DNA of 64,000 nt from a phage. The position numbers and the translations under genes were made by a program. Location of the stretch: the sequence record NC_100327.1; one strand, 5' to 3'. Below the pieces are notes generated by a model that saw nothing but the letters and a program-made list of their open reading frames with translations, did not search any database and had not been told where the DNA came from. Shown in pieces: positions 31,190 through 36,704 of the stretch; the first letter of the stretch is position 1; each line of letters starts with the position of its first letter.

Positions 31190-31288
31190 GGTGCTAGGTG
31201 ATGGAATCGAACCACCTATGTATTCAACGACTACCTCGTCTATTTTCAGGATTAAAAATCCTCGCCCTTGCCAAAGGGCTTACCTAGC
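31190..31288 (-). ncRNA. non-canonical tRNA-like RNA (99 nt; identity unresolved)
   Basis: 7-bp acceptor-like helix GCTAGGT/ACCTAGC, D-like hairpin, canonical T-arm (GGTGG TTCGATT CCATC), but ~20 nt too long with a GGATT-TTT-AATCC hairpin in place of a normal anticodon arm. Confidence 0.4.
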
Positions 31289-32192: not shown

Positions 32193-32540
32193 GTTTCCTC
32201 CATTATCACGTGATAGGTGGATTTTATCATAGCAAATACTGATTGTCAAGTTCGCCGCAGGGTGGTATTCCCTGCGACTTGTCCAGCGTCCTGGACCAGC
32301 AAGACCCAACAAGTGGGTTTTCCAGCTATACCCATTACCGCGCACAGGCTCGACCTTATTACAGGTTGGCTGGGGTCACATCGTCATGTGCTGGCTGCCC
32401 CTACCATTTTAAGTGTGGTGCACTATCAAGCCCTCTAAGGGGAACTCAGTCTTCTCCGAACCCTGTTTCAAAGCATCCAGAGATAAAGCCATCAAATTCA
32501 TCTTTAAATTGGATATTCATCATGATACACGAAAACAACC

Positions 32541-32859: not shown

Positions 32860-33069
32860 TCAACAGATTCCGGCCTTATCCTTCCTGTCTGCGTATTCTT
32901 TAATCGCAACCTCATCTGCATTAGTGACCAGGTCTTCAAAGTAACTCTCAAGCTCCTCGTCAATGTCAGGAGACCAGCTCTTTTTCCTGTCAGTGTGAAT
33001 TGCAGACTTGTTGAACTTATTACAGTTCTTTGCTACCGGGTTGTTCATTAAGCGCTCCTCAGCGTTCAT
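32860..33069 (-). CDS. hypothetical protein
   Basis: 69-aa ORF overlapping the stop of the upstream gene. Confidence 0.3.
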   Translation of the reverse strand: MNAEERLMNNPVAKNCNKFNKSAIHTDRKKSWSPDIDEELESYFEDLVTNADEVAIKEYADRKDKAGIC

Positions 33070-33637
33070 AGTAAATTTTATTTAACATTACCTCATCTTT
33101 TGCAGAAAGAATACCGAGATATGCATCACCGAATCTACCTGCAACAACCTCTGCATGATACATCACTTCGTTAATATCGTCAAGAGTGATAACTGGATGA
33201 CCGTATCTCTCTGAGTATTGTCTCAGAGTGCGATGTAGAGAGTCATCATCATAGGCAGACTTTTTAATATCACAAACACGACGAATAGCCTTGATGTCGA
33301 AAAAACCTGTGCGATACCACCCAAGAAAAAGGTTTCGTGCAGTGTCAACATCTACATTGATACCATCAAGAACCTTATCTACAAGATAGCTGTCATCCTT
33401 TGGACCAGCGTCCTTAGTGCGAATGTAGTTGCCATCTTTTCCAGGCGACATCTCCTTCTCATCCCCAACCTGCATGCCATCATTTGGCGGTGTTAGCCAC
33501 TTATCCGGATGCTTACGATCACGAGCGTTAGAATGATTACGCTGGAAACCGGGCTTCCACTTGAAAGTTTTCTCCATCTGTTCTTCATTCTGATAACGTT
33601 TTGCAATCTTTTCACGGTCATCTTTGCGTGAACCCAT
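33059..33637 (-). CDS. hypothetical protein (first gene of the minus-strand late operon)
   Basis: 192-aa ORF immediately downstream of the large non-coding block. Confidence 0.35.
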   Translation of the reverse strand: MGSRKDDREKIAKRYQNEEQMEKTFKWKPGFQRNHSNARDRKHPDKWLTPPNDGMQVGDEKEMSPGKDGNYIRTKDAGPKDDSYLVDKVLDGINVDVDTARNLFLGWYRTGFFDIKAIRRVCDIKKSAYDDDSLHRTLRQYSERYGHPVITLDDINEVMYHAEVVAGRFGDAYLGILSAKDEVMLNKIYYER

Positions 33638-34140
33638 AGCTGCCTCCTCTTCAAGTTATAGAAAAACTCACTGTATCGCTTTGTAACGAGCTTTTCTATC
33701 AAACTGGTGCGATTGCATTACCTGGTATAGTTTATATAGCTGTGGAGCGATTTAGGGGCCTTCTTGTCAGTTTCCACACATAAACTTCATCCAAGCTCGC
33801 GCGGGAGACTCTCAACCGACTCCTTACGGCGCTGGCAAGCTTTCGTCGGTGGTCCACATCAGTGCTCGGCCTTTGGCCTGCGCTATCGCTTCGCTCCCAC
33901 ACATGTTAACAGACCTGCATGTATGAACTTCTGTTATTGTGTGCACCAAGGAGGCCCGGCATCTCGCCCCTCGTAGGCGAGTGCCAATGAAGGGCCGACA
34001 CTGCCCATAGTAAGTAATAAATTTAAAACATGGTACTTAGGATCTAGTATATTCTACATAAGTTAAGTATATGTACTTAGTACCATAAGTACTAGATCTT
34101 TTATTTTTTATTATTTAGTTATTTTAGTTATATTCTTTAT

Positions 34141-34250
34141 GTGTCCGTATCACGGACAGTTAGTGTCCGTATTACGGGCAGATGTGTCCGCGTGACGGAC
34201 AGTAGTGTCCGTATCACGGACAGTTAATAGTATCCGTTCCATGACGAACA
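34141..34250. repeat. array of palindromic iteron-like repeats (TGTCCGT-N3-ACGGACA) with ~21-bp phasing
   Basis: Copies at 34143-34159, 34165-34181, 34185-34201 and 34206-34222, plus a degenerate copy at 34231-34250; adjacent AT-rich tract at 34085-34140. Confidence 0.6.
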
Positions 34251-34297
34251 TAAAACATACGAATCCTTATAGTACAGATATTTAAGTTTTTACTGGT

Positions 34298-34648
34298 CTA
34301 ACCAGTTGTTGACATCCGAATAACTTCTTCTGGTGGCAAAACTTTGGAAAATGTGCATCTTTTACCTCTCCCTTGTGTGGATGTTTCAACCACTCCTGCA
34401 CATTCTAAAGTTTTAACGCACGCTGCTGCTTTTGTTTTCTTTATCCCAACATCTGCTGCAATTTTCCTTGTGCTTGGTGTGAAGCGTGAATTTCCTCCAA
34501 GCTTATACCAGTTGTGCAGGTAGCAGTATACGATCTTGTCATACAAGTCAAGAACAACAACCTCCCCAGTTGTGTCATTCAAAACTTTTGACATAGATAG
34601 TATTTCAAGGGGGACTTTAAGATATAGCAGCTTATCCCCATCTTTCAT
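34298..34648 (-). CDS. putative helix-turn-helix DNA-binding protein
   Basis: 116-aa ORF; RKIAADVGIKKTKAAACVKTLECAGVVE segment looks like an HTH; gene ends ~50 bp from the iteron array. Confidence 0.35.
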   Translation of the reverse strand: MKDGDKLLYLKVPLEILSMSKVLNDTTGEVVVLDLYDKIVYCYLHNWYKLGGNSRFTPSTRKIAADVGIKKTKAAACVKTLECAGVVETSTQGRGKRCTFSKVLPPEEVIRMSTTG

Positions 34649-34695
34649 ATCTCCTGATTCTCCTTGTGTGGCAATTTTCTTTAAAATAGCAGGGA

Positions 34696-35250
34696 TTACT
34701 CCCTGCTGTCAATATCAAAACTCATTGCAATACGGTATGCCTCTTCTAATGGTAAGAGTCTCCCCCACACATCCCAACCGACATCAAGCTGCCTGCCAAA
34801 CAACTGTTGTGTGGTTCCGTGAGCATGACCGAACAGTTGGACTGATCCGTGAGGCTTTCTGTTCCACTTTGCAAACTGGTAATGGCTCATACAGATCAAA
34901 TTCTTGTTGTGGCGAAGCTCGTAATAATCTACAACCTCATGACCGAACTCTTTCATAATTCTGACAGTCGTCCTTGTGTCATGGTTGCCACGAACAAGAA
35001 TAATATGTCCGTTCAACATATTTAGAATATCTGGAAGTAAGTTGTTGATATTCTTATCATTAGTGCACGCAATATCTCCCAAGTGGAACACAGTGTCTGC
35101 AGGTGACACAACAGAGTTCCACTCGGCGATGATTCCCGCATTCATACTGTCAAGATTGTGATCATACTGAGATCTGTGTTTTTGACATGAATCAAACTCC
35201 ATGACCCGCTGGTGGAGAAAGTGTGTGTCGCTTGTTACAAAGTATTTCAT
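34696..35250 (-). CDS. calcineurin-like metallophosphoesterase (putative 2',3'/3'-phosphatase partner of the kinase)
   Basis: Motifs DTHF, GDIA and GNHD; start placed at MKYFVTSDTHF (ATG 35250, GAGGA RBS) rather than the track start, which overlaps the kinase gene. Confidence 0.6.
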   Translation of the reverse strand: MKYFVTSDTHFLHQRVMEFDSCQKHRSQYDHNLDSMNAGIIAEWNSVVSPADTVFHLGDIACTNDKNINNLLPDILNMLNGHIILVRGNHDTRTTVRIMKEFGHEVVDYYELRHNKNLICMSHYQFAKWNRKPHGSVQLFGHAHGTTQQLFGRQLDVGWDVWGRLLPLEEAYRIAMSFDIDSRE

Positions 35251-35257
35251 ACATTCC

Positions 35258-35668
35258 TCATTTAAGTTTAATGCAGTTTTTAAGCTGGCGTTCCATACGA
35301 TCCACAACCTTGTCTGGAACATCATGAATGCTTTTATTACCGTGGCGGTTTTCAACCACGATCACGGTATAACTATACCCATGACTGATTGCCATGTCAA
35401 CATATTCCTGCACATGTTTTTCTTTTGTAAACGTATTACTTACCACGATACGGTCGTATCCCATACGCATCATATCTTCTACGTTATCTTTGCACCATTT
35501 TGCTGCGAGTGTTACTTTACTTGCATCCCAGTTGTAATTGCCGTCATCGTCATACCAGAACATGTCGTTCTCAAAATGTGGATACAGACCCTCTAAAGAT
35601 AGCGCATTTGCCAGTGTTGATTTGCCAGACCCTGGTAGACCACGCACGATATATAGCATTTTAGACAT
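35258..35668 (-). CDS. polynucleotide 5'-kinase (P-loop kinase domain, T4 Pnk N-terminal-like)
   Basis: Start at ATG 35668 with GGAGGG RBS; Walker A GLPGSGKST; size and motifs resemble the kinase half of T4 Pnk. Confidence 0.6.
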   Translation of the reverse strand: MSKMLYIVRGLPGSGKSTLANALSLEGLYPHFENDMFWYDDDGNYNWDASKVTLAAKWCKDNVEDMMRMGYDRIVVSNTFTKEKHVQEYVDMAISHGYSYTVIVVENRHGNKSIHDVPDKVVDRMERQLKNCIKLK

Positions 35669-35768
35669 AGTGACCCTCCGTTTTAATTTCAACGGTAGTA
35701 TACCTAACTGTTTTGTTAATTTCAAGTGTTGACACTAGGTTATTTGTGTGGCAGGATAGACTGACAAA

Positions 35769-36704
35769 ATGACAAATGAGGAACATATAATGAAGTATTT
35801 TAATGCAGACGACCTAGTTGACAAAGGTCTTGTAACCAGTAGGTATTACCCAGATCTCGGGTTAAAGATCTATAAATATGCTAGAAAAGTATTTTACAAC
35901 AATTTATGGCATTTGTCCCCTCGTTTACTGGAGTGCCGAGGCATTGTTGTAGGTAATGAAGGAAATGTTGTGGCATGGCCCTTCACAAAAGTGTTTAACT
36001 TGGGAGAAAACTCCACCAACCTGCCTGACAATAAGCTTGTGACTGCGGTAGAGAAAAAGAACGGATTCCTTGGTGTGGTATCATCTCATAAAGGTGACCT
36101 ATTGTTCTCAACAACCGGGTCTCTTGATTCTCCATATTGTAACCTTGCAAAGGAAACCATCCAAGAGCAATGTGGTAATTTAGATCTTATCAAGAAGGTT
36201 ATGGGCAATGAAAACATGACATTCATGTTTGAAATTTGTCACCCTTCAGATCCGCATATTGTTCAAGAAGACCATGGCGCATATTTGATAGGTTGCAGAT
36301 ATAATGATTCTGGAATAATGCTACCAGAAGCCGCTTTAGATGGGATTGCCAAATACCTTGGTGCAAAACGTCCTCACACTGTGCGTGAAATTCCGTTCAG
36401 CTATGCAAAAGAGTTAGCTGCAGAAACAAGAGGTGAAGGATATATGATTCGTAAGCCTTACTACCCTTATGATCTGCAGTTGAAGATCAAGTCTCCATAC
36501 TATCTGGCACGAAAGGCCGTAATGAGGGGTAAAGCTTGGAAGATTTGGGATGATGATATCTTTAAACGTGTTGACGAAGAGTTTTACGGCATGGTAAACT
36601 TCATTCGTAACAACTACACAGAGGATGTATGGAACTGCCTCCTGGAGCAGGAACGCCGTGAGATACTTGACTGCTATTTCCACAACGAGGACTATATGCA
36701 ATGA
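35769..36704 (+). CDS. RNA ligase 1 (T4 RnlA-like)
   Basis: Conserved blocks shared with T4 Rnl1 as I recall them (LLECRGIVV, KVFNLGEN, nucleotidyl-transferase lysine motif EKKNGFLG); sits opposite the kinase/phosphatase genes. Confidence 0.6.
   Translation: MTNEEHIMKYFNADDLVDKGLVTSRYYPDLGLKIYKYARKVFYNNLWHLSPRLLECRGIVVGNEGNVVAWPFTKVFNLGENSTNLPDNKLVTAVEKKNGFLGVVSSHKGDLLFSTTGSLDSPYCNLAKETIQEQCGNLDLIKKVMGNENMTFMFEICHPSDPHIVQEDHGAYLIGCRYNDSGIMLPEAALDGIAKYLGAKRPHTVREIPFSYAKELAAETRGEGYMIRKPYYPYDLQLKIKSPYYLARKAVMRGKAWKIWDDDIFKRVDEEFYGMVNFIRNNYTEDVWNCLLEQERREILDCYFHNEDYMQ

Follow-up and report, generated by a model that had tools for sequence, protein, structure and literature searches.

What is the function of an array of four short palindromes that lies beside an AT-rich tract, in the intergenic region next to a small gene (34298..34648), in a 64,000-nucleotide stretch of phage DNA (sequence record NC_100327.1; hereafter the window)? 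An earlier note on this DNA had offered two answers, a replication origin or a master operator of a phage regulator. The answer that we favour, with slightly better than even confidence and on computational grounds, is that the locus is probably the theta-type replication origin of an rV5-like phage, of the iteron type and with a binding protein that lacks the usual recruitment domain. The origin half of the earlier proposal gained weight from the low stability of the tract, from homology of the neighbouring protein to the structure 4RO3, and from the recurrence of the gene, repeats and an A-rich tract in other genera.

To judge from its identity to known genomes, the window comes from a Vequintavirus, an rV5-like coliphage: its positions 33000-36000 share 100% identity with Escherichia phage inoa and 98-100% with some 115 further Vequintavirus (rV5-like) genomes. 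These phages are among the most frequently isolated coliphages (PMC8594841). Genome-wide counts refer to a pseudo-genome of ~139 kb, made up of the 64-kb window and two further stretches of phage inoa. For the intergenic comparison a 660-bp region was aligned in 11 relatives, whose version of the neighbouring protein is 87-100% identical to that of the window; the alignment contains 39 repeat sites.

The palindrome array and the AT-rich tract

The four repeats occupy positions 34142..34158 (TGTCCGTATCACGGACA), 34164..34180 (TGTCCGTATTACGGGCA), 34185..34201 (TGTCCGCGTGACGGACA) and 34206..34222 (TGTCCGTATCACGGACA, the same sequence as the first); elements of the intergenic region have no strand unless one is given. 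Four 17-bp palindromes with 7-bp arms had been claimed. They are present and unique, the first two starting one nucleotide before the positions initially read (34143 and 34165), and their conserved core is 6+5+6 (TGTCCG-N5-CGGACA), not 7+3+7. The seventh pair is found in copies 1 and 4 only; copy 1, which is absent in phage navn, is a perfect 7+3+7 dyad. Copy 2 has one half-site mismatch, the same wherever this copy exists. The units are semi-palindromic direct repeats, and their centres are TATCA, TATTA or CGTGA, not poly-A.

Start-to-start distances in the array are 22, 21 and 21 bp. Since the half-site centres are 11 bp (one helical turn) apart and adjacent sites two turns apart, bound dimers would share one face of the helix, and the phasing that had been predicted is borne out. 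Several tandem direct repeats in helical phase, four here and two to four in the relatives, are a hallmark of iteron-type origins.

When up to two mismatches were allowed, the motif had six matches in the window, as compared with 1.19 ± 1.10 in 100 dinucleotide-preserving shuffles of the 64-kb sequence, none of which (0/100) reached six. All four matches with no or one mismatch fall inside 81 bp, and the scan of the ~139-kb genome revealed no further site of this quality and no other cluster of half-sites. A genome-wide 'master' operator can be rejected, the motif being confined to a single locus in ~139 kb, where it overlaps neither a σ70-type nor an rV5 late-type promoter. The record of phage inoa labels the array merely as 'repeat_region', and the repeat sequence had no match in the literature searched. 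None of the E. coli genomes searched contained similar DNA, which speaks against an element of the host, of a prophage or of a satellite. A CRISPR-like array was ruled out, the 'spacers' being merely 4-5 bp long. Sites for LexA, CRP or IHF would not fit the spacing.

Among the 39 sites, positions 1-6 and 12-17 of the repeat are near-invariant, with the exceptions of A15G, which is fixed in copy 2, and one T3C in FV3. The central positions 7, 8, 10 and 11 vary freely. Fixed half-sites around a variable centre fit the pattern of a dimer reading two half-sites. The mean pairwise difference is 0.037 in the array and 0.033 in the AT-rich tract, which makes them the best-conserved parts of the intergenic region. 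The segment 34228..34249, previously read as a fifth degenerate copy, turned out to be the most variable stretch of the region in the 11 relatives, with a mean pairwise difference of 0.32 as opposed to 0.03-0.07 in its flanks; this hypervariable spacer is not a conserved site and probably represents a repeat that has decayed or the scar of a recombination event.

The number of repeats is four in most relatives, three in nomo and two in navn and YN3 (loci L002, L003, L005). Such copy-number polymorphism among near-identical phages (window 34141-34226) points to frequent unequal recombination within the array. Three Logan metagenomic contigs of rV5-like phages (L013, L017, L018) stop inside or just beyond the array, which suggests that it breaks short-read assemblies.

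The presence of an AT-rich tract with short dyad symmetries beside the array was confirmed. This candidate DNA-unwinding element (34009..34139) has a GC content of 17.5% over 80 bp and 19.2% over 120 bp, which is the minimum of the ~139-kb genome (runner-up 22.5-24%), and by nearest-neighbour energies the least stable 100-bp segment of the genome lies within it. In composition and predicted stability the tract is what would be expected of the unwinding element adjacent to the repeats of an iteron-type origin. In the 11 relatives 91% of its columns are invariant. There are GATC sites at 34041 and 34095, and two dyads, formed by ATGGTACTTAG (34030-40) with CTTAGTACCAT (34076-86) and by GATCTAGTA (34041-49) with TACTAGATC (34090-98). 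These are interleaved, not nested, so no single cruciform is possible. On the plus strand the segment 34095..34107 (GATCTTTTATTTT) agrees with the E. coli oriC 13-mer consensus GATCTnTTnTTTT at every position, as no other segment of the ~139-kb genome does.

The AT-rich tract is directly flanked by a conserved non-coding block of 55-63% GC (33725..34008). The frame of rV5 open reading frame (ORF) 78 in this block is open in 11 relatives. Its variable sites are distributed 10/12/9 over codon positions 1/2/3, which indicates no coding selection, and the coding reading was rejected. A structured RNA was rejected as well, because the fold energies were no better than those of shuffles (z -1.35 and -1.51). 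Rfam searches with the window at gathering thresholds and with 33600-34320 at E ≤10 returned tRNAs and chance-level matches only. The block may belong to the origin or represent an unstructured RNA. A second GC-rich stretch (≤59%) with no annotated gene is found at ~32200-32450, between two small minus-strand genes and upstream of the tRNA cluster.

The winged-helix protein encoded next to the array

The gene at 34298..34648 (minus strand; rV5 ORF79, annotated as 'putative transcriptional regulator') encodes a protein of 116 amino acids. The last full repeat of the array ends 75 bp from its stop codon, a distance earlier put at ~50 bp, so that a gene of initiator type, presumably the cognate one, lies in cis. 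The protein can be described as a standalone winged-helix domain similar to the N-terminal domain of PLE RepA (DUF6945/HTH_36) and is presumed to bind the iterons as a dimer. Its Pfam matches, DUF6945 (27.4 bits, cut-off 28) and HTH_36 (24.5 bits, cut-off 25), are both just below threshold, and the Pfam RepA_N model did not match. In PHROGs it matched phrog_12838, 'replication initiation protein', and, more weakly, three further initiator families in their N-terminal parts.

The best match of the 116-aa protein alone in a sequence search of the PDB was 4RO3 (E 3e-6). With a profile built from 15 family sequences 4RO3 was matched over the whole domain with an E-value of 3.9e-14, the next match having 6e-4. 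AlphaFold2 run on a 13-sequence alignment predicted a beta-hairpin followed by a winged helix, with a predicted local distance difference test score (pLDDT) of 78 and a predicted template modelling score (pTM) of 0.72; the fold from the single sequence (pLDDT 39) was not usable. Foldseek again placed 4RO3 at the top (E 5e-6, 27% identity over 101 columns), followed by the RepA N-terminal domains of pSK41 and pTZ2162 (~113 columns). The PDB, profile and Foldseek matches agree in pointing to an N-terminal winged-helix domain of the RepA_N type.

The structure 4RO3 is the N-terminal domain of RepA, the initiator of the Vibrio cholerae satellite PLE and a member of the RepA_N family (PMC7145576). 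Gel shifts showed binding of PLE RepA to semi-palindromic iterons; for the satellite to replicate during ICP1 infection, RepA and its origin are both needed and suffice (PMC7145576). PLE RepA too had no RepA_N match by BLASTP, and domains of the RepA_N/PLE-RepA type are rare in Gram-negative systems (PMC7145576). The same domain, fused to a nuclease, forms the origin-directed nuclease Odn of ICP1 (PMC8263062), which explains the ICP1 matches obtained. We consider it likely that the four sites are bound by the adjacent 116-aa protein; the constancy of the half-sites around a varying centre, and the occurrence of other repeats beside divergent homologues, support this indirectly.

The protein stops right after the wing, and the Vequintavirinae proteins, 105-116 aa in length, have no counterpart of the C-terminal domain of RepA_N initiators. 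An exhaustive HMMER search over 1.84 billion representatives gave eight matches, three of which were real distant relatives (P0008, P0009, P0011). With the profile search this very small family grew to 16 proteins, of which 11 are metagenomic homologues with a length of 182-217 aa and a C-terminal extension. The word-index protein search found close relatives only, the IMG/VR search with the 116-aa protein found no relatives, and the plasmid search found no plasmid-encoded relative of 4RO3. In several of the longer homologues (P0009, P0011, P0014, P0017, P0020; loci L022-L028) the extension terminates in an acidic tail, D(E/D)xPF, similar to the C-terminal tip of single-stranded DNA-binding protein (SSB). 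Their genes are located at the start of an early operon beside a large divergent intergenic region, in L023 between the DnaB-primase and PolA genes. Next to the genes of the distant metagenomic homologues we found at most two 22-bp direct repeats beside an AT tract, and no clear palindrome array.

Binding of repeat arrays via (winged) helix-turn-helix domains is also known from lambda gpNu1 and from centromere-binding proteins of plasmids. In the same manner the array might be a pac or partition-like site, with the winged-helix protein as a small-terminase-like or centromere-binding factor; the rV5 genome is circularly permuted (PMC3606486), and a Seunavirus-type homologue of the protein has a faint SoPB_HTH match (E 0.06). 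We regard this as very improbable, since Pfam, PHROGs and the PDB revealed no similarity to a terminase small subunit, and the gene belongs to the early region, where it follows a σ70 promoter, has genes for RNA repair and nucleotide metabolism as neighbours and is ~4 kb away from the terminase gene. To our knowledge a lytic phage has no need of partition.

Transcription across the array

The σ70-type promoter of the winged-helix gene (rV5 'P76') is located at 34683..34712 on the minus strand (TTGACA-18-TATTTT). The standard scan of 33500-34800 detected no other σ70 promoter and no terminator. As there is no terminator between gene and array, the array is inside the transcription unit, downstream of the gene, and transcripts from P76 would cross both the array and the AT-rich tract. 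A relaxed scan yielded one poor candidate over iteron 1, the leftward CGGACA-15-TAAAAT (34147-34121), which has four of six -35 positions and a spacer of 15 bp. The rV5 late-promoter motif TGGTAAAATA has 21 matches in the window, where 6.2 were expected, and 11 of its 14 minus-strand matches are in the late region to 29.5 kb (window 381-29501); none falls in 33.6-34.7 kb. Enrichment and location of the motif agree with the T4-late-like promoter class proposed in the literature. Where the upstream phosphoesterase gene has its 3′ end, the 18-bp spacer of P76 contains a hairpin with an 8-bp stem and one G·A mismatch (GCAGGGAG-TA-ATCCCTGC, 34690-34707), which may be a combined terminator and promoter.

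This arrangement could also be read as a local operator or roadblock, in which the winged-helix protein occupies four sites downstream of its own gene and either blocks P76 read-through to the small genes and the tRNA cluster or represses the weak leftward promoter at 34147-34121. Dyads of 17 bp have the classical repressor-operator geometry, and tandem 17-bp dyads to which dimers could bind cooperatively are known from the lambda OR1-3/OL1-3 arrays. The absence of a terminator, the promoter-like match over iteron 1 and the naming of the protein as a transcriptional regulator in several database records are in line with this, as is the situation in the genera Seunavirus, Mydovirus and Henunavirus, where the repeats are 14-20 bp before the start codon, a typical place for autoregulation. 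The sole promoter candidate on the array is, however, poor and was missed by the standard scan, the array contains no late-type motif, and the strong promoter of the protein itself has no site. The sites were thus not found to overlap the -35 or -10 element of a regulated promoter, as operator sites would, with the proviso that undescribed phage-specific promoter classes are possible. In contrast to lambda OR/OL, where the repressors are cI and Cro, the array has no recognisable promoter overlap, the protein is unrelated to cI/Cro, and the repeats abut an unwinding-prone tract. An operator would leave this constant adjacency to the least stable tract unexplained, and the protein is 10 orders of magnitude closer to the iteron-binding domain of an initiator than to any repressor. 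We think it rather unlikely, in either variant, that the array serves as an operator instead of an origin, yet this is the main rival reading. Iteron-binding initiators commonly autoregulate too, as in iteron plasmids, hence the two functions are not mutually exclusive.

If P76 read-through occurs, the array is transcribed, and each unit could form a stem of 6-7 bp, with inner pair variants T-A, T-G and C-G. In the winged-helix mRNA the repeats might then fold into four consecutive hairpins within the 3′ untranslated region and serve as a stability or processing element. The 39 sites show no compensatory change in the 6-bp arms, which favours sequence-specific recognition of DNA, although divergence within the genus is low and arguments from compensatory changes are weak both ways. 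The changes in the arms break pairing inconsistently (T3-G15 in copy 2, C3-A15 in copy 3 of FV3), and the C-A mismatch of the inner pair of copy 3 is kept in most phages. The units lack a U-tract and are not terminators, and the strict 21-22-bp phasing has no RNA rationale. On this evidence a function as RNA hairpins is improbable.

The origin model, other genera and known replicons

In tblastn searches the 116-aa protein was found in Vequintavirus only. Seunavirus (EC152, GAP31, 4MG), Mydovirus and Henunavirus have 105-aa 'HTH' (helix-turn-helix) proteins that are remotely homologous to it (hhalign probability 97.8%, E 1e-12) and also match DUF6945; the phi92-like phages (Justusliebigvirus) have no homologue at the corresponding intergenic region. 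Beside the genes of the 105-aa proteins there are two direct repeats at 23-bp spacing, each with the dyad TCAAATTGA or GCTCAAATTGAGC, followed by an A-rich tract that ends in AAAGATCTTTTA (also given as AAAGATCT). The core of the oriC-type 13-mer, AGATCTTTTA, occurs after the A-rich tract in all three genera. The order of repeats, ATAAA-rich run and AAAAGATCT in these genera is that of the minus strand of the window, with the same polarity, and the AT-tract alignment with Henunavirus was better than 300 of 300 shuffles. The repeats are at the 5′ end of the homologue's gene in the Seunavirus group and at the 3′ end in Vequintavirus. Because the gene is flipped relative to the repeats in Vequintavirus, the constant partner of the repeats is the AT-rich tract and not the promoter of the gene. 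Between Vequintavirus and the Seunavirus group, protein and repeat sequence change together, as the RepA_N DNA-binding domain and origin repeats of PLE do (PMC8263062).

Of the known systems the PLE replicon (RepA and the ori iterons, 'repeat 3') resembles the locus in its homologous DNA-binding domain, 4RO3 being the best match by sequence, profile and Foldseek. Its iterons, too, are direct repeats each containing an inverted repeat, and its origin is in non-coding DNA outside the rep gene. The replisome of the helper phage ICP1 is of the same type as that of rV5: PLE RepA operates together with a polymerase and a helicase-primase of T7 type and requires a helicase of superfamily 1B (SF1B) (PMC7145576). 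In contrast to PLE RepA, the protein of the window has just 116 aa and no C-terminal domain, and it belongs to a lytic phage, not to a satellite. The repeats differ as well, PLE having long arms that converge on a poly-A tract, whereas the four dyads of the window are short (17 bp) and have a mixed centre of 5 bp.

A similar layout is known from ori-lambda, which has four iterons, each a dyad of ~17-19 bp (TCCCTC-N5-GAGGGA) bound by an O dimer, at a spacing of ~20-24 bp. A meltable AT-rich region is directly beside the lambda iterons, and the origin depends on transcription that passes through it or close by. The four 6+5+6 dyads, their 21-22-bp spacing, the adjoining AT tract and the upstream promoter of the window match this layout. 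The lambda origin is, however, inside the O gene, whereas the array is downstream of its gene, and the C-terminal domain of O recruits P-DnaB, whereas the protein of the window has no such domain. Phage_rep_O gave no significant match, the sole trace being an E-value of 0.017 with a Seunavirus-type homologue. The RepA_N plasmid replicons of Firmicutes (pSK41, pTZ2162) share the N-terminal winged-helix dimer domain, which Foldseek aligned over ~113 of 116 residues. They differ from the locus, which has no Pfam RepA_N match, no C-terminal domain, an origin that would not be inside the gene, a Gram-negative host and a lytic phage as carrier.

For the putative iteron-type origin, which would correspond to ~65.2 kb in rV5 coordinates, we propose the following mechanism. 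Dimers of the adjacent winged-helix protein would occupy the four 17-bp dyad sites, each on one face of the helix, and the aligned dimers would bend or wrap the DNA. The stress of wrapping, possibly together with transcription from the 34712-34683 promoter, could melt the adjacent AT-rich tract. A T7-gp4-like primase-helicase, and perhaps a PIF1/Dda-like helicase too, would then load on the bubble. The rV5 genome encodes both a primase-helicase of the gp4d/DnaB type and a helicase of the PIF1/RecD type (PMC3606486).

A number of points weigh against an origin, or against this form of it. The protein lacks the C-terminal domain that is thought to recruit the replisome in RepA_N initiators. The existence of phages with two repeats means that four copies are not required. 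The AT-rich tract is kept in sequence, not in composition alone, and probably holds an additional sequence-specific element besides its presumed unwinding role. Two of the three intergenus comparisons of the tract, those with EC152 and Mydo, were marginal, and repeats that abut the 5′ end of the gene in the Seunavirus group would also suit autoregulation. No DnaA box (TTATCCACA) was found within one mismatch in 33500-34400; such sites for host factors are common but not universal in iteron-type origins. The GC skew turns ~1.5 kb from the array, at the change of transcription direction, and not at the array. As the skew follows transcription direction it is uninformative on the origin; in the rV5 genome paper, too, skew analysis failed to locate an origin, and skew changes tracked the direction of transcription (PMC3606486). 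Finally, all evidence is computational. It consists of the anatomy of the sequence, the uniqueness of the motif, the pattern of conservation and the relationship of the protein to an initiator domain proven to bind iterons; that the protein binds the repeats, that the tract melts, that a helicase loads and that replication begins here is inferred.

Compared with known kinds of iteron origin, the locus departs in three respects: the protein has no recruitment domain, the origin is outside the gene, and the carrier is a lytic myovirus of a Gram-negative host. Vequintavirinae might use a minimal initiator that consists of the DNA-binding domain only, a RepA_N/PLE-RepA-like dimer of 105-116-aa subunits that would act solely by phased wrapping of the iterons next to a highly unstable unwinding element, on whose bubble the T7-gp4-like primase-helicase would load itself; we put this forward tentatively and would not expect it to hold in full. 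If it did, the N-terminal domain of PLE RepA and ICP1 Odn would derive from such an origin-binding module of a phage. An origin at this locus would extend the iteron-binding domain of the RepA_N/PLE-RepA type to a large family of lytic enterobacterial phages, would imply that the domain works without a C-terminal recruitment domain, and would provide a defined origin for engineering rV5-like phages or phage-dependent replicons. With ~220 bp and one small gene the candidate is precise and cheap to test.

Some features outside the locus may be mentioned. Phage inoa has, at 69.7-72.3 kb and outside the window (L020 34754-37270), a stretch of ~2.5 kb without annotated gene where transcription converges. 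It probably corresponds to the box labelled 'non-coding' in the rV5 paper. The far edge of this stretch, toward the first small genes, contains the second least stable DNA of the genome, and the stretch is a possible second cis-acting region. Eighteen GenBank records (MG0656xx) titled 'Campylobacter phage' are ~99% identical to E. coli rV5-like phages and are probably mislabelled or contaminant assemblies. In the tRNA cluster a 99-nt tRNA-like gene (31190-31288, minus strand), for which ARAGORN predicted a four-base anticodon (atcc) and Rfam a tRNA with 35.5 bits, is annotated as 'tRNA-OTHER' in phage inoa and may be an intron-bearing or unusual tRNA.

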